Source: Candidatus Sericytochromatia bacterium
Lineage (GTDB): Bacteria; Cyanobacteriota; Sericytochromatia; S15B-MN24; UBA4093
Length of the DNA stretch: 33,579 bases
Direction: 5' to 3'
NCBI GenBank assembly: GCA_036676495.1
Contig: JAKFCT010000022.1
Span: 1 to 33,579 of the forward strand
Part shown: piece after piece, positions 7,008 through 22,547 of the stretch
Layout: each line of letters begins with the position of its first letter
Position numbering within the stretch: position 1 is the first letter of the stretch
Notes under the pieces: generated by a model
What the model was told of the DNA's origin: nothing
Databases searched by the model: none
Seen by the model: the letters and a program-made list of their open reading frames with translations, nothing else
Position numbers and translations under genes: made by a program

Positions 7008-8165
7008 GTGAACGTCCTGGCCCCGCTCGGCAAGTTGAGGAACGCCGGGGATCGCGCCAACGAGCTCTTCCGGCGCCTCCTGCCCTTCAAGATCATCGAC
7101 GCCTACTTCGTCGCCGAACTGGTCAGCCCCTTCACCATGGGCGTCTTCGGGTTCATCGTCATGAACCTGGCGAACCTCCTGTACATCTACGCCAACCTGA
7201 TCTTCTCCTCGGGGGTCTCGGTCGGCGTCGTCCTGCAACTGCTGGCCTTCAACATGCCGGCGATCGTGGTCATCACCTTCCCGGTGGCCTTCCTCTTCGC
7301 CACCTTGCTCGCCACCGGCCGCTTGGGACGCGACTCCGAGGTGACGGCGCTGCGCGCCTGCGGCACCAGCTTCCGGCGCCTGGCGGTCCCGATCATGGTC
7401 GGGTCGATCTTGGTCTCCGGGGCCGGGTTCTGGGTCAACGACGAGGTCGTGCCCCGCGCCAACCGCGCCGTGGTCGACCTGGTCCGCACCATCATGCTCC
7501 GGCAGTCCAAGCCCGTCTTCAAGGACAACGTCTTCTTCAAGGGCAAGGATAACCGCTACTTCTACATCAAGCAGGTCGACCAGCGCACCAACATCATGTA
7601 CGACATCATGATCTTCGATCGCACCGGAGATCTGCCGGTCGTCATCACCGCCAAGGAGGGCACCTGGTCCGGCACGGCCTGGCACCTCACCAACGGCGTG
7701 ATCCATCGCTACGGCACGACGGACTTCGTCCAGACCGAGCAACCCTTCTCCAACTACGAGGTCACGGTCGACACCAACCCGGAGACCTTCTTCACCCAGG
7801 GGGACCTGAGCCCCCAGGAGCAGAACTCCCGCCAGCTCAAGGAGCAAATCGACACCATGAAGAGCGGCGGCGTCGACACCAAGGCCATCGAGGTGGACTA
7901 CTACCTCAAGTTCAGCCTGCCCTTCGCCACGTTCTTCGTGGCCTTGCTCGCGGCCCCCTTGGGCCTCAAGTTCGCTCGCCTCGGCGCCTTCATCGGAGTC
8001 GCCTTGACGATTGCCCTCGTCTTCGTCTACTACATCGTCATGTCTATCGCCCGATCCATGGGCAACGCGGGGATGATCGACCCGATCACCGCGGCATGGA
8101 TTCACAACTACCTCTTTGGCATCGTGGGAGCGTTCTTGCTGTGGCGCGTCGATCGGAGTTCCTAA
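7008..8165 (+). CDS. lptG: LptF/LptG-family LPS export ABC permease (385 aa)
   Basis: IIDAYF, DSEVTALRACGTS, same topology; clearly paralogous to the upstream gene. Confidence 0.9.
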   Translation: MNVLAPLGKLRNAGDRANELFRRLLPFKIIDAYFVAELVSPFTMGVFGFIVMNLANLLYIYANLIFSSGVSVGVVLQLLAFNMPAIVVITFPVAFLFATLLATGRLGRDSEVTALRACGTSFRRLAVPIMVGSILVSGAGFWVNDEVVPRANRAVVDLVRTIMLRQSKPVFKDNVFFKGKDNRYFYIKQVDQRTNIMYDIMIFDRTGDLPVVITAKEGTWSGTAWHLTNGVIHRYGTTDFVQTEQPFSNYEVTVDTNPETFFTQGDLSPQEQNSRQLKEQIDTMKSGGVDTKAIEVDYYLKFSLPFATFFVALLAAPLGLKFARLGAFIGVALTIALVFVYYIVMSIARSMGNAGMIDPITAAWIHNYLFGIVGAFLLWRVDRSS

Positions 8166-11047
8166 ACGCCTCCCCCCGCGACGGGGAGACGACAGCGGGA
8201 GGATTCACTCCCCGCTCCTGGCGCCCCTCGGGGCGTCGCTTCCTGGCGCTGAGCCTGGCCGCTTTTTTTTGCCTGCATCCCTCGCTTGCCGCACCCGCGC
8301 TCGCGCAGGGACCGGAGACGCCGCCCGCTCCTGAGCCGGTGCCTCCCGGCCCCGGCGAACCCGGCCAGCCTGGCCAGCCAGGACCTGGCCAGCCAGCGCC
8401 TGGCCAGCCAGGGCCGACCGCCCCCGGGGAGCCCGCGGCGGCTCCCGGCGGCATGCGCGTCAAGATCAAGGCCGACCGGATCAGCACCGATCGCGCCACC
8501 GGGATCTCGACCGCCGAGGGGAACGTCCGGATCGAGGTGCAGGGCGTCGTCATCACCACCGAGGCCATCCAGTTCAACCAGCAGACCCGCACGGTCAGCA
8601 CGACCCGGGACTTCACGCTGGTCCAGGCCGATGCGCAGGGCAAGCAGCAGGTCATCAAGGGCACCGGGCTCAGCTACGAGATTGCCACCGAGACGGCGAC
8701 CGTCGAGGGAGCCACCCTGACCGTCCCGGCCAAGACCCCGGGCCAGGTGGTCTTCATCCGGGCCGATCGCCTGATCTCCTTCAAGAAGGAGCGCTTCCAG
8801 ATCGAGAACGGGTACTTCACGACCTGCGACTGGATCGAGCTGGAGCGCGTCCCCCACTACGACGGCCGTGCGGATTGGATGGAGTACGACCCTGACGACT
8901 ACATCCACGGACGCAACCTGGAAGCCTACGTCGCAGGCAGGCGGGTCTTCTGGCTGCCGTGGTTTTATATCCCCCTGCGCCGGCGGGAGACCAGCTTCCA
9001 GATCGGCCGAAACAACCTCGAAGGCACCTTCGTCCGTTCTACGTGGGCTTACCAGCTCAATCCCTACCACTATGGGAACCTGTACGCGAACCTGTTCGAG
9101 TTTCCCGGCAACCCCTTGACCCCTCCGCTGGGCTTCCCCCCCGCGCCCTACGCGCCGTTGGGGCCGGGCGTGGGCGTGGATCACGTCTGGTCAGCCGTTC
9201 CCAACTCGCTCTCGGCGCTCACGTTCTACGGGCTCGTCTTCCCGGACGTCACCGACTACGTTCCGCAGTTCGTGAACAACGATCCCAGCCTGGGCCTCGA
9301 CGAGGCGACGGACCGCGCGCGCAACCCCTGGCGCGTGAACGGGTTGGATCCCAACGCCCCGCGCAACTTCCAGGATCATATCTTCCGGCTGAGGCACCAG
9401 CAGCGCTGGTTCGGCTCGGACTTCGTCACGGACACGTGGTTCGAAGACAACAACATGTACGATCTTCAGCGCGTGGGGCCGACCTTCCTGCGCGAGTCCT
9501 TGTGGACCAACCCGACCCAGCGTTACCGTGACAACCACTCGGCATGGTTCGCGGGCCTCAACGACCGGCGCTGGGGCACCACCTACAGCCTGAGCCGGAA
9601 CTTCCGCGACGAGCGGGGCTTCAGCCCCTACCAGGCCACCCAGGATCAGGCGCAGGCCAGCGGGAACTGGGGCGGCACGTCGGTCAACTTCAGCCTGAAC
9701 AAGAACACCCAGCAGCAGGGCCTCATCCCGGGCTCCCCCGCGGGCGTGGCGCCTCCGTCGGCCACCGTCACCGAGTCGAACAACCTGACGGTGACGCAGC
9801 GCATCACCCCGCAGCTGCAGTTCAACAGCAACACGAACCGCACCTACAACCAGAGCGCCAACAGCCTCAGCGAGACCCTCAACCAGACGCTCGATCTCAC
9901 CCAGAGCGCCGACTGGGGCACCCTCAGGGGGACCTTCGCCAAGCGCTACGACCTGGCTCCCCCGGTCGGCAGCCTCCAGCAGCAGTACCAGCGGCTGGGG
10001 GGCCTCGAGAAGCTGCCAGAGGTCGACTTCACCAGCCGCAACCTGCTCGATCAGTTCCAGCCCCTCACGGCGGCGGCGGGCGTGGGGCGGTACTTCGAGC
10101 CGGCTCAGTTCAACCCCGGCCTCTCCTTCACCACGGCGCCGATCAACCGGGTCTACGGGAAGCTCACGGCGGTCTCTCGCCAGATCGGCCTTCCCGGCAA
10201 CTCCCAGATCGACTTCGGGGGGACGGGTTTCGAGCAGCGGCTCTACTCCACGGGAGACGCCGGCGCCCAGTTCTCCACGGTCTCGGCCCTGACCACCCGG
10301 TACACCGACTGGGCCAACTCGAACCTCAGCTACCGGCGGGATTACACCCTCGAGGACAGCACGAGCCCCTTCCGGTTCGACAACTTCTCGATCTCGAAGC
10401 AGAACCAGCTCAACGCGCAGGTGAACTTCGTGGCGGGCGATCGCTTCAACTGGACCCACTCGACGGGCTACAACTACGAGAACCGGGTTTACCTGCCCTA
10501 CAACACGGGCTTGACCTTCCGGCCCAATGCTCGGGTGAACCTCACGCTGGGCACGGGGTACAACTTCCCTCAGACTCCGCACCTGGAGCTGAAGGGCGGC
10601 ACCTGGTACCCGCTGAACTCGACGCTGCTGATCCGCTCCAGCGAGACGGCCTTCGGGGGGCTGTACGGGAAGGAGAACCTGACTCCGGGCTGGCAGGTGA
10701 ACAACACGCTCAGCTACGACTTCACGCGCGGGGAGTTCACGGCCCTGACCAACCGGCTGCAGATCGCGACGGGGACGACCTGGCAGAACCACTGGGAGCT
10801 GGTGGTGGAGGGGCAATTCGACGTCTTGGACAAACAGTACAAGCTGATTGACATCGGGATCAACAAGGACCTGCATGATTTCATCCTCGGGCTCACGTAC
10901 AATCGCCGGCTCGAGGCGTACACCGTCAACTTGGCCATGGTCGCTTTCCCGACTCAGCTGATAAACTTGTCGAACAAGAGCTTCGGGGGGATCGGGGATC
11001 CCAGCTCGCTGATCGGCGGAGCCACGGGGGGCCAATGGGGATTCTAG
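8141..11047 (+). CDS. lptD: LptD-like LPS assembly outer-membrane protein (about 968 aa; start uncertain, GTG 8141 or ATG 8096)
   Basis: Signal peptide; OstA-like domain (IKADRI, AEGNVRI, YFTTCD, PHY, VFWLPWFYIP); long amphipathic beta-strand region; C-terminal Phe; GGGAG 10 nt before GTG 8141. Confidence 0.8.
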   Translation: MARRSEFLNASPRDGETTAGGFTPRSWRPSGRRFLALSLAAFFCLHPSLAAPALAQGPETPPAPEPVPPGPGEPGQPGQPGPGQPAPGQPGPTAPGEPAAAPGGMRVKIKADRISTDRATGISTAEGNVRIEVQGVVITTEAIQFNQQTRTVSTTRDFTLVQADAQGKQQVIKGTGLSYEIATETATVEGATLTVPAKTPGQVVFIRADRLISFKKERFQIENGYFTTCDWIELERVPHYDGRADWMEYDPDDYIHGRNLEAYVAGRRVFWLPWFYIPLRRRETSFQIGRNNLEGTFVRSTWAYQLNPYHYGNLYANLFEFPGNPLTPPLGFPPAPYAPLGPGVGVDHVWSAVPNSLSALTFYGLVFPDVTDYVPQFVNNDPSLGLDEATDRARNPWRVNGLDPNAPRNFQDHIFRLRHQQRWFGSDFVTDTWFEDNNMYDLQRVGPTFLRESLWTNPTQRYRDNHSAWFAGLNDRRWGTTYSLSRNFRDERGFSPYQATQDQAQASGNWGGTSVNFSLNKNTQQQGLIPGSPAGVAPPSATVTESNNLTVTQRITPQLQFNSNTNRTYNQSANSLSETLNQTLDLTQSADWGTLRGTFAKRYDLAPPVGSLQQQYQRLGGLEKLPEVDFTSRNLLDQFQPLTAAAGVGRYFEPAQFNPGLSFTTAPINRVYGKLTAVSRQIGLPGNSQIDFGGTGFEQRLYSTGDAGAQFSTVSALTTRYTDWANSNLSYRRDYTLEDSTSPFRFDNFSISKQNQLNAQVNFVAGDRFNWTHSTGYNYENRVYLPYNTGLTFRPNARVNLTLGTGYNFPQTPHLELKGGTWYPLNSTLLIRSSETAFGGLYGKENLTPGWQVNNTLSYDFTRGEFTALTNRLQIATGTTWQNHWELVVEGQFDVLDKQYKLIDIGINKDLHDFILGLTYNRRLEAYTVNLAMVAFPTQLINLSNKSFGGIGDPSSLIGGATGGQWGF
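8360..8415 (+). repeat. Coding tandem repeat (PGQP units) in the LptD N-terminal linker
   Basis: Repeated CCTGGCCAGCCAG units with about 15-bp period, encoding PGQPGQPGPGQPAPGQPGP. Confidence 0.7.
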
Positions 11048-11055
11048 GGGGCCGC

Positions 11056-11856
11056 ATGCGCGCGCCGTACAAGAGGGTCATCGGGATCGTGGCGATCGCC
11101 GCCGTGCTGGGCGCGGCGGGCTGCGCGCGCAACGTCACGGCGCAGGCGCGCGAGGTGCTGCGCATCCAGATCCAGACCAAGGGCCCGATCCTGACCAACA
11201 CTCCGGCGGTGAAGTACTACCTGGTGCTCAACACGACGAGCAGCGTGGAGGGTCCCCGCGGCTACGGCCCCTGGCCGAACGACGCTCCGCGCCTGGGCTG
11301 GCGCCTGCCGTTCTACCTCAGCTCGCAGACGCCGACCTACCAGGGCACGGTGCCCTTGCTGCCGGTGCACTTCACGGATTACTTCGTCCTCACCAACGTG
11401 GCGGGGACGCCCCAGGTGACCCAGGGGCGCCTGGTGGGGCCCACCGATGCCCAGGGGCTCTCGCAGCCGCCCGTCGGGGGGCTCTTCGCCGCCGGCAACA
11501 ACCTCCTCGAGAACTACCGGGTGCTGCAACAGGGGCAGGACTGGACCGTCTCGGGCAATACCTGGAACCTGACCTTGACCAAGGCGGATCTCACGGGGAT
11601 TCCCGAGGGCGGGAACGCCCCGATCAGCGCCAACCTCTTCAGCACCAACGCCTCTCCGGATCGCGGGGATCAGATCATCGATCGCTGGACCCTTTCCGAG
11701 AACGACTTCTTCACCCTGCAGACCCGGGCGGGGACGCTGACGAGCGATCGGAACTTCGCCTCCCCCCTGATTCGTCCGGAGAACAAGCCTACCAACGTGG
11801 ACGCGGACTCCGTGGACTTCAGCGCGTACCAGGTGGAGATCCGCAGTACGCAGTGA
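11056..11856 (+). CDS. Hypothetical lipoprotein (266 aa)
   Basis: Basic N-terminus, hydrophobic stretch, AAGC lipobox; 8 nt after the lptD stop. Confidence 0.75.
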   Translation: MRAPYKRVIGIVAIAAVLGAAGCARNVTAQAREVLRIQIQTKGPILTNTPAVKYYLVLNTTSSVEGPRGYGPWPNDAPRLGWRLPFYLSSQTPTYQGTVPLLPVHFTDYFVLTNVAGTPQVTQGRLVGPTDAQGLSQPPVGGLFAAGNNLLENYRVLQQGQDWTVSGNTWNLTLTKADLTGIPEGGNAPISANLFSTNASPDRGDQIIDRWTLSENDFFTLQTRAGTLTSDRNFASPLIRPENKPTNVDADSVDFSAYQVEIRSTQ

Positions 11857-15017: not shown

Positions 15018-16310
15018 TTGCTTTGCCCCAACTGTCAGGCCGAGAACGCAGCGGAAAATCGTTTCTGTTGTGATTGCGGCAAGCCCCTCAAGATCGCCGT
15101 GACGGCCGTGGCGTCGCGTTCGCACGTCACTCAGCCCGCCGGATCGGCCGGCTCCGGTGGCCTGCTGGCTCCGAGCACGCTCCTGCAAGATCGCTACCGC
15201 ATCACCCAGTTGCTGGGCCAGGGCGGCATGGGCGCGGTCTACCTCGCCAACGATACGCGCTTCAGCAGCAAGGTCTGCGTGGTCAAGGAGATGCTCGACC
15301 ACTTCCACGACCCCGAGCAGCGCGAGATCGCCACCCAGAACTTCTACCGCGAGGCGGATCTTCTCGCCAACCTCAAGCACAACTCGATTCCCGAGGTCTA
15401 CGACCGCTTCACCGAGGCCAACCGCCACTACCTGGTGATGGAGTACATCAACGGGACCGACCTCGAGCAGCGCATCAACGAGCAGGGCAACCAGCCCTTC
15501 GAGGAATCGGCCGTGATCGGCTGGGCCATCCAGGTCTGCGACGTGCTCAGCTACCTGCACCACCAGAAGCCGCCCATCATCTACCGGGACATGAAGCCCG
15601 CCAACCTGATCCTGACCAACTTCGGGAAGATCTACCTGGTGGACTTCGGCATCGCCCGGTTCTTCAACCCCTCGGCCCGCGGGACCATGATCGGCACGCA
15701 GGGCTACGCGCCTCCGGAGCAGTACCGGGGCCAGGTCGAGCCGCGCACCGACATCTACGCCATCGGCGCGACCATGCACTACATGCTGACCGGCCGCGAT
15801 CCGCAAAATGAGCCGCCCTTCTCGTTCCCGCCCGTGCGCGAGCTGAACCCCGCCGTCTCCGAGGAGACCGAGAACCTCGTCATGAAGGCGCTCGACGCCG
15901 AGATGGACAAGCGCTACGCCTCCTGCGACACCATGCTGGTGGAGCTGATCCGGATCGGCGGCGCGGCCTCCAACGCCGTCCGCCAGTGCCCCCACTGCGG
16001 CGAGAACATCTCCAAGTCCCGGCAGTTCTGCCCGGTCTGCCGCAACTACATCGCGGCGCACCACGCCTCCACCAACGCGCAGATCTACGAGCGCGCGGCC
16101 ACCGCCATGAACCTGTCGCTTCCGACGGGAAGGACCGAGCGACCGCCTCGGCGCCCCTGGCTCTGGGCCGTGCTCGGAGCCTCCGTCGCCGTGGTCGTCC
16201 TCGCGGGCGCCCTCGGCTTCTGGTTCCTCGGGCGCGGAAGCGCCAGCATGCCCACGAGCCTGACCCCGGAACCCCGCCCGTCGTCCACGGCGCAAGCCTT
16301 GAACGCCTAG
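15018..16310 (+). CDS. Hanks-type Ser/Thr protein kinase with two Zn-ribbon modules and a C-terminal TM helix (430 aa)
   Basis: GGAGG RBS + TTG; LGQGGMGAVY, VVKEM, YRDMKPAN, DFG, GTQGYAPPEQ, DIYAIG; CPNC..CCDC and CPHC..CPVC; hydrophobic WLWAVLG...FWFL. Confidence 0.95.
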   Translation: MLCPNCQAENAAENRFCCDCGKPLKIAVTAVASRSHVTQPAGSAGSGGLLAPSTLLQDRYRITQLLGQGGMGAVYLANDTRFSSKVCVVKEMLDHFHDPEQREIATQNFYREADLLANLKHNSIPEVYDRFTEANRHYLVMEYINGTDLEQRINEQGNQPFEESAVIGWAIQVCDVLSYLHHQKPPIIYRDMKPANLILTNFGKIYLVDFGIARFFNPSARGTMIGTQGYAPPEQYRGQVEPRTDIYAIGATMHYMLTGRDPQNEPPFSFPPVRELNPAVSEETENLVMKALDAEMDKRYASCDTMLVELIRIGGAASNAVRQCPHCGENISKSRQFCPVCRNYIAAHHASTNAQIYERAATAMNLSLPTGRTERPPRRPWLWAVLGASVAVVVLAGALGFWFLGRGSASMPTSLTPEPRPSSTAQALNA

Positions 16311-16325
16311 AAAGGAGGCCTCGCC

Positions 16326-17984
16326 GTGTCGAACACCGTCAAGGAACAAGATCTGGGCCCCCTTTCGCCGCTGGCCGCGGAAGTGCTCTTGACCGATCGC
16401 TACCAGATCGAACGTTTCCTCGAGTACAAGAACGCCTCGAACCTCTACCGGGCCATCGACCGCGCCACCGGCCTGGTCGTCATCATCAAGGAAAAGGCCG
16501 ACGAGGCCCCCCGCGCCTCGAAGCTGCCCAAGAGCGAGTGGTCCGACAAGGTCGCGGACAACCCCTGGCAGAACGAGTTCCTGATCCTGCGCTCGGTCTC
16601 CTACCCGACCGTGGTCAAGGCCATCGACGTCTTCAAGGAGAACGGGCGCGCCTACCTGGTCATCGAGCAGCTGGAAGGCCGCGATCTGGCCTACCTCCTG
16701 CGCAACGAGATCGCCGTCACGGTCCAGCAGTCGATCGACTGGATGGTTCAGCTTTGCCAGTCCGTCGGACAGCTGCACCGCCGGCAGATCCTTCACCTGG
16801 ATCTTCAGCCCCGCTACATCGTCGTCACTCCGGATGGCCAGCGGGTCCGCCTGACCGGCTTCCACCGCGCGGCCATCATGCCCGGCGAAGGCCCCTTCGA
16901 GGTCAGCCACGGCTACTCCGCTCCCGAGCAACACGGCCACCTCGGCGGCCACGTCGACGAGCGCACCGACATCTACGCCCTCGGCGCCATCTGGCATTAC
17001 CTGCTCACGGGAAATCCCCCGGACACCTACTGGGACAACGAGGAAACCCGCTTCAACTTCCCGGACGCCTCGGCCTTCCGGCCGACCATCCATCCGCAGG
17101 TCGAGCGCCTCATCCGCAAGATGCTGGAAGTCGACCCCAACGAGCGCTTCGGCTCCATCAACGAGCTCAAGGCCCAGCTGCTGACGCTGGTCAACAACCC
17201 GATCCGCCGGGTCGGCCACTGCTCGGACGTCGGCATGTACCGTTCGGGCAACGAGGATTCGCTGGCGGTCTTCGAGCTGAACTTCACCACCCAGTCGAAC
17301 CACTCGGGTCTGGGGCTTTACGTGGTCGCCGACGGCATGGGCGGCGTCAACGCGGGCGAGATCGCCTCGGCCCTGGCGGTCGACGAGGTCACCTCCTACG
17401 TCCAGCAGGCCCTCACGTCCCTGGGCGAGTCCATGGAGGACCCCGGCTCCGAGATCCGGGCCGCCCTCCAGCAAGCCATCAAGAACGCCAACACGCGCAT
17501 CTACGAGACCGGCCGCTACAACTCCGAGCTTTCGGGAATGGGCACGACCCTCACCGCCGGCCTGGTCTTCGGCCAGAACGTCTTCATCGGGCACGTCGGA
17601 GACTCGCGCGCGTACATCATCAACCGGGACGGCATCGAGAAGATCTCCCGCGACCACTCCCTGGTGGGCCGCCTGGTCGAGATCGGCCAGATCACCCCCG
17701 AGGAAGCGGCCATCCACCCGCAGCGCAACCTCATCTACCGTTCGCTAGGCAGCTATCCCAACGTCGAGGTGGACATCTACCAGCGTCCGCTCAAGATCGG
17801 CGATTGGCTGTTGCTGTGCAGCGATGGCCTGACCGGCCATCTCTCCGACGAGGAGCTCCATGAGACGGTCATGGGCTCCCGGGATCCCTTGCTCGCCGCG
17901 CAACAACTGGTCAACCAGGCCAACCAGCGCGGAGGAGAGGACAATATCACGGTCATCCTGGTCCACTTGGCCGAGTACATGTAG
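16326..17984 (+). CDS. Pseudokinase - PP2C/PPM Ser/Thr phosphatase fusion (552 aa)
   Basis: AAAGGAGG RBS; degenerate kinase N-half (HLDLQPRY, TGFH, GYSAPEQ, DIYALG); intact PP2C motifs RSGNED, VADGMGG, HVGDSRAY, DHSLV, CSDGL, GEDNIT. Confidence 0.9.
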   Translation: MSNTVKEQDLGPLSPLAAEVLLTDRYQIERFLEYKNASNLYRAIDRATGLVVIIKEKADEAPRASKLPKSEWSDKVADNPWQNEFLILRSVSYPTVVKAIDVFKENGRAYLVIEQLEGRDLAYLLRNEIAVTVQQSIDWMVQLCQSVGQLHRRQILHLDLQPRYIVVTPDGQRVRLTGFHRAAIMPGEGPFEVSHGYSAPEQHGHLGGHVDERTDIYALGAIWHYLLTGNPPDTYWDNEETRFNFPDASAFRPTIHPQVERLIRKMLEVDPNERFGSINELKAQLLTLVNNPIRRVGHCSDVGMYRSGNEDSLAVFELNFTTQSNHSGLGLYVVADGMGGVNAGEIASALAVDEVTSYVQQALTSLGESMEDPGSEIRAALQQAIKNANTRIYETGRYNSELSGMGTTLTAGLVFGQNVFIGHVGDSRAYIINRDGIEKISRDHSLVGRLVEIGQITPEEAAIHPQRNLIYRSLGSYPNVEVDIYQRPLKIGDWLLLCSDGLTGHLSDEELHETVMGSRDPLLAAQQLVNQANQRGGEDNITVILVHLAEYM

Positions 17985-18009
17985 AGCAAGCACAAGGAGG
18001 AAGCATCCC

Positions 18010-18384
18010 ATGAGCGATACCCCCTCGAATCCGCTGACGGAAGCCCCCGCCACCACGGCCAAGCTGGTGATCACGCGCGGCGGGACGGTCGGCAAGGAAT
18101 TCACGGCCGAAGCATCTGGTGAGACGCTCATCGGCCGCTGGGACCCCGATGGTGGCGCCTTCCCCGAGGTCGACCTCACCGGTGATGACCCTGAGGCCAA
18201 GATCTCGCGCAAGCACGCCCGGATCTTCGTCCAGGACGGCGAGTACTACCTGGAGGACCTCGGCTCCCTCAACGGCACCTACGTCAACCGTGGGCCCCGA
18301 CTCCTGCCCGGCAGCCCCCACCCCCTGAAGAATGACGACGAGATCGTCATGGGCAAGACCTTCTTCAAGTTCGTGGTCGGCTAA
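18010..18384 (+). CDS. FHA-domain protein (124 aa)
   Basis: AAGGAGG RBS; IGR, ISRKHA, DLGSLNGTYVN FHA motifs. Confidence 0.92.
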   Translation: MSDTPSNPLTEAPATTAKLVITRGGTVGKEFTAEASGETLIGRWDPDGGAFPEVDLTGDDPEAKISRKHARIFVQDGEYYLEDLGSLNGTYVNRGPRLLPGSPHPLKNDDEIVMGKTFFKFVVG

Positions 18385-18408
18385 GAGAGCGAGGAGGTTT
18401 CGACGATC

Positions 18409-18906
18409 ATGGTGACCTGCGCGAGTTGTTCGCATGAAAACCAGGCGGGAGTCCAGTTCTGCGACGAGTGCGGAGCGAAGCTGGAGATCAACGCCGCGAT
18501 TCCCGCTGCCGAGAAGGTAGCCGCCGGCGTCTCGTCCGGGCTTCCGCCGAGCCTGAGCTCGGGAACCGCCGACCAAACCGGCAAGCTGGTGATCTCGCGC
18601 GGCGGGACGGTCGGCAAGGAGTTCACGCTGGAGCAGTCGGCCGAAACCCATATCGGCCGCTGGGATCCCGATGGCGGTTCCTTCCCTGAGATCGACCTCA
18701 CCGGCGACGATCCCGAAGCCAAGATCTCGCGCAAGCACGCCCGGATCTTCGTCCAAGACGGCGAGTACTACCTGGAGGACCTCGGCTCCCTCAACGGTAC
18801 TTACGTCAACCGGGGGCCCCGCCTCCTGCCCGGCAGCCCCGAGCGCCTCAAGAACGACGACGAGGTCGTCATGGGCAAGACCTTCTTCAAGGTCGTGATC
18901 GGGTAA
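18409..18906 (+). CDS. Zn-ribbon + FHA-domain protein (165 aa)
   Basis: GAGGAGG RBS; CASC..FCDEC zinc ribbon; FHA motifs as in the upstream paralog. Confidence 0.92.
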   Translation: MVTCASCSHENQAGVQFCDECGAKLEINAAIPAAEKVAAGVSSGLPPSLSSGTADQTGKLVISRGGTVGKEFTLEQSAETHIGRWDPDGGSFPEIDLTGDDPEAKISRKHARIFVQDGEYYLEDLGSLNGTYVNRGPRLLPGSPERLKNDDEVVMGKTFFKVVIG

Positions 18907-18915
18907 CGCGTTCTC

Positions 18916-18946
18916 AAGGGGCCGCCTCACGCGAGGCGGCCCCTTT
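18916..18946 (+). terminator. Intrinsic terminator ending the kinase/FHA operon
   Basis: AAGGGGCCGCCTC-acgc-GAGGCGGCCCCTTT. Confidence 0.75.
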
Positions 18947-18973
18947 CGCATGCGGAACACCCCTCAACCGCAC

Positions 18974-19065
18974 GAACGACTACTCCTCACCCCCGTGATC
19001 AACTTCTCGTCACCCCCGTGAACGACTTCTCGTCACCCCCGTGAACAACTTCTCGTCACCCCCGC
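18974..19065. repeat. Four tandem 23-bp repeats
   Basis: Units at 18974, 18997, 19020, 19043; consensus GAACRACTTCTCGTCACCCCCGT; no spacers. Confidence 0.9.
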
Positions 19066-19146
19066 GGAAGCGGGGGTCCAGCGCAGGCATCCACGTGAGC
19101 TGCCGGCAGGTGGATACCCTGGATTCCCGCTTCCGCGGGAATGACG
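19054..19146. repeat. REP/RPE-like palindromic doublet (CGTC-ended type)
   Basis: CGTCACCCCCGCGGAAGCGGGGGTCCAG ... CTGGATTCCCGCTTCCGCGGGAATGACG: two inverted, internally palindromic units flanking an internal hairpin. Confidence 0.8.
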
Positions 19147-19148
19147 CC

Positions 19149-19191
19149 AAAAAAACCCGAGGCGGGATCCCGGTTGGGATCCCGCCTCGGG
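19149..19191 (-). terminator. Intrinsic terminator of the recombinase-like gene
   Basis: 16-bp stem CCCGAGGCGGGATCCC / GGGATCCCGCCTCGGG followed by T7 on the minus strand. Confidence 0.85.
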
Positions 19192-19230
19192 CTGAGAGCG
19201 TGTCGGTTGGATTGGCCGTGGAGGCTGAAG

Positions 19231-20019
19231 TTAGCAGACCTGCAGGATGGCTTCCGAGTGGTTGACCTGGCCGAAGAGCTCCTTGGAGATGATGGCCTCG
19301 TGGTCGTTCTCGTAGAGGCGGTTCTGGCACTGGTAGTCGCCAGTATAGAAGATGTTCTCGAGGATGGTCTTGACCGTGTTGGCCTGCCAGCGGCCTCCGC
19401 GCTTGGTGGCGACACCGTCGCGGGTCAGGTCGTTGGCAATCTGGCGGAGCGAGCGACCGAGCGAGCGCTCCCGGAAGATCCGCTGCACGACGGCGGCCTC
19501 GGTGGGGTTGGCGACGAACTGGTTGGTCGCCTCGTCGAGCGAGTAGCCGTAGGGGCAGGTGCCGCCGTTATGCAGCACTTCGCGGGCCCGGACGAAGACC
19601 TTGGGAGCCGCGGTGGTCTCCTTGGGAGGACGCACCCAGCTGGCGACCTGAGGAATGGTGACGAACAACTTGAGAAGCTGCTGACCGTCGGGACGACCGG
19701 TGTCGATGTTCTCCTGGACCGAGATCAGGCGGATGTCCTTGTGGTTGAACTCGGAAAGCACGGTGGCGACGTCGTGGAAACGACGGCCGAGGCTGACCAG
19801 GCTCGTGACGATGACCGTGGCCCGCTCGTTGGAGGTCAATTCCTTCATGCGGGGACGCTCGAGGGCCGCGCCGAGGGCGCCCTCATCGATGGCGACATCC
19901 TCGAGGGCGAGGTTGTTCGCATTGCAGTAGGCGCTAAGAGTCTGCTTCTCCGCTTCGAGGCGCTTCGCGTCTCCCGTCTGCTCCGGATGGATCCAGAGGT
20001 AACCAACCACCTTGCTCAT
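19231..20019 (-). CDS. Serine recombinase-family protein (resolvase + recombinase domains), catalytic motif degenerate (262 aa)
   Basis: DEG..G..LERP, SLGR, LISVQENIDT, GGTCPYGY, EAAVVQRIF, SLRQIANDL..G..T.RGGRW, ILENIFYTG, HEAIISKELF; GGAGG RBS; YLWIH replaces YxRxS. Confidence 0.85.
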   Translation of the reverse strand: MSKVVGYLWIHPEQTGDAKRLEAEKQTLSAYCNANNLALEDVAIDEGALGAALERPRMKELTSNERATVIVTSLVSLGRRFHDVATVLSEFNHKDIRLISVQENIDTGRPDGQQLLKLFVTIPQVASWVRPPKETTAAPKVFVRAREVLHNGGTCPYGYSLDEATNQFVANPTEAAVVQRIFRERSLGRSLRQIANDLTRDGVATKRGGRWQANTVKTILENIFYTGDYQCQNRLYENDHEAIISKELFGQVNHSEAILQVC

Positions 20020-20174
20020 CGTGCTTCCTCCAATCGGGCCACGCTCTCATCAGGCCCATACATGGTCTATCGCGGAAGGCACGGGGGATCTTGCGACTCG
20101 GCGGTTAAGGCGGATTTAAATCTATCCAATCTCGACATTAAACTTGCCCGGCACTCGGCCAGGGAGCCGGGGAT

Positions 20175-22547
<2,373 letters not shown>

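Follow-up and report, generated by a model that had tools for sequence, protein, structure and literature searches.

Enzymes that lose catalysis and turn into regulators are well known. The closest functional precedent that we found for the protein described here is MrpR (YopR), the master repressor of the Bacillus phage SPbeta. As far as the accessible text of its description goes (PMC10516654), MrpR has a tyrosine-recombinase fold from which crucial catalytic residues are gone, does not recombine DNA, and acts as a DNA-binding repressor on repeated elements. According to the accessible part of PMC2428073, the serine recombinase Sin is catalytically inactive when bound at site II, where it binds direct repeats by way of flexible linkers and keeps its catalytic serines more than 12 A from the DNA. 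For Tn3 resolvase, the accessible part of PMC2794168 reports that mutations of Y6, R8, S10, D36, R68 and R71 greatly reduce cleavage and recombination, and that no mutation strongly inhibited site binding. In its accessible passages on resolvases and serine recombinases, a 2022 review of the recruitment of mobile elements names only active serine invertases and integrases (PMC8987985). Our search of full-text literature found no described family of dead serine recombinases and none fixed as a core gene, a negative that is provisional because most subscription journals were excluded. Here we describe a gene at positions 19231-20019 on the minus strand of a 33,579-nucleotide (nt) stretch of DNA from Candidatus Sericytochromatia bacterium (contig JAKFCT010000022.1; this whole stretch is called the window). 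It encodes a 262-amino-acid (aa) derivative of a serine recombinase, named the window protein below, which is probably a pseudo-enzyme: a non-recombining, sequence-specific DNA-binding regulator or architectural protein of vertical, class-wide descent.

Both domain folds of the large serine integrases (SPbeta, Bxb1, phiC31, TP901-1, LI/A118) match those of the window protein. In contrast to these integrases, it has no zinc ribbon, no coiled coil and no equivalent of Arg8, Ser10 and Arg68, its helix E is truncated, and its gene shows no association with a mobile element, the neighbours being housekeeping and signalling genes (attachment sites as such were not searched for). Dimers of Sin and of gamma-delta/Tn3 resolvase bind accessory sites without catalysis, as is predicted for the window protein. 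However, these enzymes are fully active at another site and carry a small helix-turn-helix, whereas the window protein would be hard-wired inactive and has the larger Recombinase domain. MrpR differs in being a phage gene product of an unrelated, tyrosine-recombinase fold, while the window protein has a serine-recombinase fold and is the product of a core gene of its class.

Catalytic residues and fold

The family alignment contained 94 rows, namely the window protein and 93 database hits, among them the active outgroup P0093 (231 aa). The homologue search behind it was confined to lengths of 144-459 aa, and within this range all family hits (n=92) were 176-300 aa long. The N-terminus reads GYLWIHPEQ in the window protein and AYIRVSTDQ in P0093, and the second motif reads VSLGRR and DRLTRS, respectively. 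The former Y-x-R-x-S motif (19987-20001, minus strand) comprises codons 7-11, Y-L-W-I-H, with Trp9 for Arg8 and His11 for Ser10. The former D-R-L-x-R motif (19780-19797, minus strand) comprises codons 75-80, V-S-L-G-R-R, in which the equivalent of Arg71 is kept as R79. The position of Arg8 was occupied by Trp in 89 of 89 family rows covering the column, the sole Arg being that of P0093. The nucleophile column of the 94 rows held Ser 37 times (one of them P0093), Ala 14, His 12, Asn 10, Pro 8, Gln 4, Thr 2, Glu 2, Arg 1 and Leu 1, with 3 gaps; Ser was thus kept in 36 of the 93 family rows and nine other residues stood elsewhere. Since Ser and non-Ser forms are both present within f2, f4 and f7 (the taxonomic families of the class are labelled f1-f7), the nucleophile Ser was replaced repeatedly while Trp9 stayed constant. 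Asp67 and Arg68 correspond to Val75-Ser76 in the window protein, and both columns are variable across the family: position 76 is Arg in 5 of the 94 rows (one being the outgroup) and position 75 is Asp in the outgroup only. The R68 equivalent is gone in all but 4 family rows and the Asp67-Arg68 pair in all of them. Other active-site residues are kept, namely Y7 (Tyr6; 90 of 90 covering rows), R55 (Arg45; 92/92) and R79 (Arg71; 92/94), together with R80 (93/94), D83 (94/94) and E103, which is invariant or nearly so.

Measured against the residues listed in the accessible part of PMC2794168, the window protein is without three of six, and every family member is without at least R8. Because of the invariant Trp at Arg8, the missing Asp67-Arg68 pair and the truncated helix E, the whole family appears to have lost recombination function despite the retention of Ser in many members. 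As judged from the alignment, the Arg-to-Trp change and the loss of helix E are common to all, and the nucleophile Ser seems to have been lost later and repeatedly. A sequence-only reading of the window had taken the gene for a catalytically dead serine recombinase. The loss of both catalytic motifs, read there as YLWIH and VSLGR, is borne out, but the Ser-to-His change that it noted is lineage-specific, the shared lesion being Arg8 to Trp. Its expectation that orthologues share the loss of Ser failed in the 36 rows mentioned above, and what they share instead is the Arg8-to-Trp change.

The Resolvase and Recombinase domains named in that reading were both recovered by Pfam, PF00239 at residues 18-122 (E 6.5e-14; 52.7 bits, the cut-off being 23.3) and PF07508 at residues 172-254 (E 5.4e-22). 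The PF00239 match leaves the catalytic N-terminus unscored, since the first profile position that it aligns is 13. The Pfam scan gave no zinc-ribbon or coiled-coil match, and the protein stops at residue 262. NCBIfam yielded partial, sub-threshold matches only (CcrB, CcrC, XisF) and the ESM Atlas only generic 'recombinase family' clusters; the best sequence matches among solved structures were SPbeta integrase and the catalytic domain of TP901-1 integrase.

Pfam and an AlphaFold2 model (mean predicted local distance difference test score, pLDDT, 88.9; 48-row alignment) divide the protein into an N-terminal resolvase-fold domain (about residues 1-108) and a Recombinase, or DNA-binding, domain (residues 148-255). 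Between them the model places a helix E remnant (residues 109-129) and a flexible Pro-rich linker (residues 130-147). The top Foldseek matches were the SPbeta, Bxb1, phiC31 and TP901-1 integrases (E 1e-13 to 1e-8). The modelled catalytic-type domain matched TP901-1 integrase 3bvp with a template-modelling (TM) score of 0.78 on the target, and the modelled Recombinase domain matched 4kis with a root-mean-square deviation of 2.1 A over 104 columns. Both domains are therefore modelled as keeping the folds of large serine integrases. A homodimer prediction with two copies scored 0.09 against a mark of 0.42 and was not used either way.

In active enzymes, the interface for dimer/tetramer formation and rotation is made by the C-terminal half of helix E. 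The helix E stretch is VSVAQWERETIGERTRDAL in active P0093 and VTIPQVASWVRPPKETTAAPKVFVRAREVL in the window protein, from which the ER...ER residues of the active relatives' helix E are missing. In the model, helices at residues 110-121 and 123-129 are followed by the Pro-rich linker, and the pLDDT drops to 57-73 over residues 131-150. The helix break falls at I-P-Q (residues 122-124), which is nearly invariant. A long helix E was accordingly not found, its C-terminal half being swapped for the variable Pro-rich linker.

Distribution, descent and origin

The source genome (G000; 4.14 Mb, 106 contigs) contains one copy of the dead-recombinase gene. The only further match there, of 522 aa, is a large serine recombinase of the active type, in which YTRVST, DRLSRS and Cys clusters are present. 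Of the 47 genomes of the class, 43 had a single strong orthologue each (E <= 4.2e-46), free of internal stops and with about 250-262 residues in the alignment. All 23 genomes of at least 90% completeness and no more than 5% contamination are among them, and completeness is 64-83% in the four that lack a strong orthologue. Further serine-recombinase matches in the class genomes were sporadic, and no active one was conserved class-wide. Among the 254 genomes of the phylum outside the class (301 sampled in all) there was no strong orthologue, the best match having an E-value of 1.6e-23, and the matches there sit in frames of about 500 aa or about 230-250 aa and are probably of the active type. 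On inspection this type was seen in the example of about 231 aa from the class itself, L052, and in the profile-search rows P0095, P0096, P0100, P0101, P0103, P0105, P0112, P0126 and P0128. In a profile search of 1.84 billion representative proteins, the presence of the Trp motif was confirmed for seven representatives, six of them full-length at 297 bits or more and one a fragment, P0097, at 192 bits. The next rows inspected, P0095 (218 bits) and P0096 (192 bits), had active motifs. The source names of the close homologues were Candidatus Sericytochromatia, Blackallbacteria and unclassified cyanobacterial metagenome-assembled genomes.

In a maximum-likelihood tree, midpoint-rooted for drawing, 37 orthologues were split with 100/100 support from 8 active short recombinases, whose rows sit on long branches. 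Within it f2, f4, f6 and f7 were each monophyletic and the taxonomic order uniting f1-f4 was also recovered as a clade; the number of label changes was 7, the minimum possible, against a shuffled mean of 29.6. The ratio of nonsynonymous to synonymous substitution rates (dN/dS), roughly estimated by the Nei-Gojobori method for 10 pairs, was 0.035-0.41 over the entire gene; taken separately, the N-terminal domain gave 0.04-0.47 and the Recombinase domain 0.02-0.31. Mean pairwise identity was highest in the Recombinase domain (65%), which contains the invariant stretch GRSLRQIA...TKRGG(R/K)WQANT, and lower in the N-terminal domain (38%) and the linker (31%). The gene is not a relic: it is a single-copy chromosomal gene of vertical descent with purifying selection on both domains. 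The proposal of the sequence-only reading that a disabled recombinase is kept as a normal chromosomal gene agrees with its presence in 43/47 genomes, a tree that follows taxonomy and the dN/dS of 0.035-0.41.

The nearest active relatives are proteins of about 230-264 aa with Resolvase and Recombinase domains and no zinc ribbon, such as P0096 (253 aa), P0112 (258 aa) and P0128 (264 aa). These short active proteins are the closest outside the family, with 192 bits or less to the family profile and 33-38% identity, and PHROG 95 'integrase' is the best phage family for dead and active forms alike. Since they too are short two-domain proteins, the absence of a zinc ribbon is ancestral and no truncation of this gene; the missing zinc-ribbon/coiled-coil tail had been rightly noted earlier, but it is not peculiar to the gene. 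The short two-domain recombinases share with the window protein its architecture, length and TKRGG.W. In contrast to the window protein, YxRVS(T) and DRLxR are intact in them and helix E runs on without a break (AQWERE...ER); they are also sporadic, multi-copy or prophage-borne, whereas the family of the window protein is single-copy and class-wide.

One of them, at L052:2992-3687 (G012:C11), is a 231-aa active-type open reading frame (ORF) with YVRVSTQEQ, DRLTRS, a Resolvase domain and a shortened Recombinase domain. It lies 137 nt downstream of an unannotated 172-aa ORF, and farther away are ORFs of 410 aa (about 1.2 kb upstream) and 520 aa (about 1.3 kb downstream). By eye, the 410-aa ORF was taken for a ParB-like methyltransferase and the 520-aa ORF for the large subunit of a terminase, which makes the region look prophage-like. 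Frames similar to this recombinase are multi-copy in G021 and G027. A short two-domain phage-type serine recombinase was probably captured once at the base of the class, lost its recombination chemistry and was thereafter passed on vertically as a single-copy core gene.

Promoter, TTAA arrays and predicted role

A pattern search of orthologue upstream regions revealed a promoter-like element, CAAG-N15-CGCGATAG, at 20067-20093 on the minus strand. Of 36 orthologue upstream regions, 25 contained CAAG-N14-16-nnn[GT]ATAn, at a distance of 33-102 nt from the start codon. As controls, the reverse strand gave 1/36 and 200 shuffles a mean of 0.9 and a maximum of 4; the genomes are related and the counts are not independent. 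No sigma-70-type match was found in 18850-20250. The flagellar/WhiG consensus has TAAA at -35 and GCCGATAA at -10 (accessible part of PMC8325347). The -10 of the gene resembles this flagellar/group-3 sigma consensus, but its -35 differs, being CAAG and not TAAA. A FliA/WhiG-family sigma factor above the curated cut-off was detected in the source genome (268 bits) and in 40 of the 47 class genomes. The flagellin gene G000:C29:16938-17345 is preceded by TAAAG-N14/15-GTCGAATAG (TAAAG...CGAATAG), which is close to the canonical flagellar promoter and weakens an assignment of the dead-recombinase promoter to FliA proper. Because the flagellin promoter differs, the CAAG-type -35 may belong to a paralogous group-3 sigma factor, for which the FliA-like protein encoded at C88:41580-42248 (125.6 bits) is a candidate. 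About 30 lipoprotein or unknown genes of the source genome carry CAAG-N15-nnCGATAA, and these genes together with the TAAAG of flagellin suggest two related group-3 sigma specificities in one genome.

RNA contigs on the copy of a relative (about 92% identical) extend from the stop codon (19231/2) to 20022-20050, that is, 3-31 nt upstream of the ATG. They are 815-842 nt long in three metatranscriptome libraries and occur as three shorter pieces in a fourth (four studies), and they cover none of the neighbouring genes. This gives a weak hint of a monocistronic transcript, and the 5' end of the contigs fits a start near 20058-20060.

Three TTAA boxes lie upstream of this promoter, at 20141-20138, 20119-20116 and 20108-20105 (20105-20141, minus strand); they keep an 11-bp register, and their positions relative to the -35 are -48, -26 and -15. 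In 22 orthologous promoters, TTAA boxes occupy slots -15, -26, -37 and -48 while the intervening sequence diverges; the spacings between them are 11 (12 times), 22-23 (12 times) and also 16, 33 and 39. The slots recur in promoters of f1, f2 and f4, and the single f5 promoter has -26 only.

The arrays are not private to this gene. TTAA is under-represented in the source genome (1419 observed, 3491 expected), and the spacing between neighbouring TTAA peaks at 11 (88 pairs), 22 (30) and 33 (11) over a background of about 3. There are 143 phased TTAA clusters, nearly all of them promoter-side, and only 2 of the 135 scorable ones lie between convergent genes (gene orientation beside arrays was inferred from G+C content at codon positions, GC1>GC2). 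The box consensus is YTTAAMCY, an 8-bp unit with a 3-bp linker in two to four direct repeats, its flanking bases being biased because site orientation was chosen by that asymmetry. Of 155 array-side proteins, 36 had a strict lipobox, compared with 112 among 3197 background ORFs (odds ratio 8.3). Twenty array-side proteins were scanned: they included a LysM-M23 peptidase, a 1305-aa peptidoglycan-binding and LysM protein, a subtilase, a PLD protein, an EF-hand lipoprotein, a Fur-family regulator, a histidine kinase and an OmpR-family response regulator, and six had no family. Examples of array-side genes are C10:115499-117127, C31:70854-74771 and C28:109315-110652. Compared with the reversed control AATT-N7-AATT, TTAA-N7-TTAA was in 4- to 77-fold excess in 25 of 28 genomes of f1-f5; one f1-f5 genome had 64 against 0. 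In f7 the excess was about 1.3- to 4-fold in 7 of 13 genomes and the ratio was below 1 in six of genus g24. The signal was unreadable in the AT-rich f6, and in 114 genomes of other classes the ratio was at most 1.14 and mostly 0.3-0.6. G020, which is 64% complete and in which no orthologue was found, gave a weak result of 22 N7 pairs against 11 N8 and 40 reversed-control pairs. The array system is genome-wide and class-specific, and its boxes at the promoter would place the dead-recombinase gene in a class-specific regulon rich in lipoprotein and peptidoglycan-remodelling genes.

In form (8-bp unit, 3-bp linker, direct repeats) the arrays match the cyanobacterial Pho box, which is described in the accessible part of PMC1906773 as at least three tandem 8-bp repeats of consensus CTTAACCT bound by the OmpR-family protein SphR. 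Unlike the Pho regulon, none of the 20 array-side proteins scanned was of a phosphate-acquisition family, and no PstB above the curated cut-off was found in the source genome; a classical Pho regulon was set aside on these two grounds. The best PhoB-like OmpR-family response regulator of this genome (C31:49072-49752) has an array 36 nt upstream of its own start, and the FliA-like sigma paralogue C88:41580-42248 also has a phased TTAA array upstream.

Because the cutting machinery is lost, the DNA-binding half is kept and the gene is present class-wide in single copy, the product is probably a DNA-binding protein and not an enzyme. Its Recombinase domain would bind a specific DNA sequence conserved in the class without cutting it, and the bound protein would act as a transcriptional regulator or an architectural protein, roles that the sequence-only reading had also proposed. 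The remodelled active-site pocket, which formerly bound phosphate (Y7, W9, R55, R79, R80, D83, E103), may be kept for a non-catalytic job such as contact with a DNA phosphate, a ligand or a partner subunit, and the flexible linker may allow binding to direct or inverted repeats in a Sin-like manner. The gene would be transcribed alone from the conserved non-sigma-70 promoter preceded by the phased TTAA boxes. Such a protein would provide a naturally occurring Recombinase domain that only binds DNA, with a target expected to be shared throughout an uncultured and poorly known sister group of cyanobacteria, and possibly a non-cutting recognition module for recombinase engineering.

Several points weigh against this interpretation. 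Ser is retained at the nucleophile position in 36/93 family rows, as are Y7, R55 and R79, and Ser-bearing members could conceivably have residual or altered chemistry. The conservation of the Recombinase domain partly reflects Pfam-wide motifs, since active relatives share TKRGG.W, and the dN/dS values are rough because extreme third-position G+C content (GC3) distorts dS in a simple Nei-Gojobori estimate. The assignment of a sigma factor is uncertain, the genome's own flagellin promoter being TAAAG...CGAATAG and not CAAG...CGATAA. The RNA evidence consists of assembled metatranscriptome contigs, which may derive from DNA, and comes from relatives of the source organism. DNA binding by this protein, its target included, is a prediction from sequence.

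The arrays raise the question of their reader. That the protein itself reads them, as an autoregulated global regulator of about 140 promoters of lipoprotein and cell-wall-remodelling genes, would fit the two or three boxes in fixed slots at its own promoter (f1, f2, f4), the class specificity of gene and arrays, with 114 outgroup genomes having neither, the invariance of the recognition stretch of the Recombinase domain across the class, and the ability of a serine recombinase to bind direct repeats by a flexible linker (accessible part of PMC2428073). We consider it rather unlikely, since the array form is that of the SphR-bound Pho box (PMC1906773, accessible part), the PhoB-like regulator C31:49072-49752 has its own array, gene and arrays, for all their shared distribution, count as a single evolutionary event, and the f7 gene promoters are without evident arrays although the DNA-binding stretch is invariant there. 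It is likewise doubtful that the recombinase was exapted at the base of the class to become a transcription factor of global reach, or an organiser of the nucleoid, that reads TTAA arrays, those at its own gene included; if true, the protein would control the lipoprotein and peptidoglycan-remodelling secretome together with its own gene. By analogy, an OmpR-family regulator is more likely to be the reader of the boxes, given the Pho-box-like form of the arrays and the array upstream of the PhoB-like regulator, and the dead-recombinase gene would then belong to the regulon without commanding it. A parallel is the WalR-type control of wall hydrolases, which operates through direct repeats with 11-bp periodicity.

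If the target were something other than DNA, the Recombinase domain would be reused for another ligand, as in RNA binding or a protein scaffold. This is unlikely: DNA target and function do rest on inference, but the domain superposes on the DNA-bound domains of large serine integrases and keeps the most conserved basic stretch of the family, TKRGGRW, and there is no conserved partner gene. More doubtful still is a regulatory or inhibitory subunit for active serine recombinases, either dominant-negative on phage integrases or a helper of a host recombinase. The protein keeps the catalytic-domain fold through which serine recombinases oligomerise and the source genome has one active-type 522-aa large serine recombinase; yet no active serine recombinase is conserved class-wide, second matches being sporadic, and the C-terminal half of helix E, the main dimer/tetramer interface, is swapped for a variable linker. 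It is the DNA-binding domain that is most conserved and not the oligomerisation surface, phage integrases are too diverse to be poisoned by one invariant protein, and PADLOC defence models gave 0 matches. The dominant-negative inhibitor suggested by the sequence-only reading is unsupported. A recombinase or nuclease with unconventional chemistry, for instance with another nucleophile, at least in the Ser-bearing members, is highly improbable. Trp stands at Arg8 in 89/89 rows, the Asp67-Arg68 pair is gone, and single R8 or R68 mutations greatly reduce the activity of Tn3 resolvase (accessible part of PMC2794168). The Ser position takes ten residues, Pro, Ala and His among them, under strong purifying selection, the helix E rotation interface is gone, and there are no flanking repeats or cargo. 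These outweigh the 36/93 rows with Ser, the retention of Y7, R55, R79 and D83, and the invariant extra Arg R80.

The gene and its surroundings

The gene has 262 codons with an ATG start and no internal stop. Its GC3 is 0.87, that of the flanking ORFs 0.80-0.94 (13 ORFs taken as genes, 12355 to 33136). A GGAGG Shine-Dalgarno sequence, read from the sequence, lies at 20027-20031 (minus strand), 8-12 nt before the ATG, and an intrinsic terminator with a stem of 18 pairs (13 G-C), a 4-nt loop and a subsequent T-run lies at 19146-19193 (minus strand), its stem being placed at 19193-19154. The intact ORF with host-like codon usage, the good ribosome-binding site and the strong terminator of its own are thus as the sequence-only reading had them. 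An Rfam scan of 18800-20300 gave nothing close to the gathering score.

The next gene upstream is mutS2 (MutS_V, Smr and MSSS domains), on the same strand and separated by 155 bp. Other neighbours in the window are Lpt genes and those of Lnt, a subtilase, two Ser/Thr kinases, two FHA proteins, FtsH and TilS. None of the 23 neighbouring ORFs scanned belonged to a transposase, integrase or phage family; they are housekeeping, signalling or familyless, and the position beside mutS2 without mobile cargo is therefore confirmed. The proposed synteny with mutS2 holds in part: in 10 of 21 loci (the window and nine others, all of f1 and f4) the latter immediately precedes the target gene on the same strand, and it is not adjacent in f2, f6 and f7, so that the linkage is found in 2 of the 5 taxonomic families sampled. 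A conserved neighbour or operon partner was sought across the 21 loci and nothing but the target gene was common to all, which suggests a stand-alone and presumably trans-acting product.

At 15018-18906, genes for a zinc-ribbon Ser/Thr kinase and for a fusion of kinase and PP2C are clustered with a tandem pair of very similar FHA-domain genes, of which the second encodes an N-terminal zinc ribbon. This kinase/FHA cluster adjoins the target gene in 7 of 21 loci, all of f1 and f4. Two long ORFs of high GC3 (983 aa and 273 aa) are located at 8096-11856, downstream of lptF/lptG; Pfam matched neither of them at E <= 1e-4. A short stretch at 19119-19145, which lies between the FHA gene and the terminator and can form a hairpin, was matched exactly by 31-nt contigs of very high depth (maximum 4900) in a single RNA library and by no Rfam family; it resembles a short repeat of wide occurrence more than a part of the gene.

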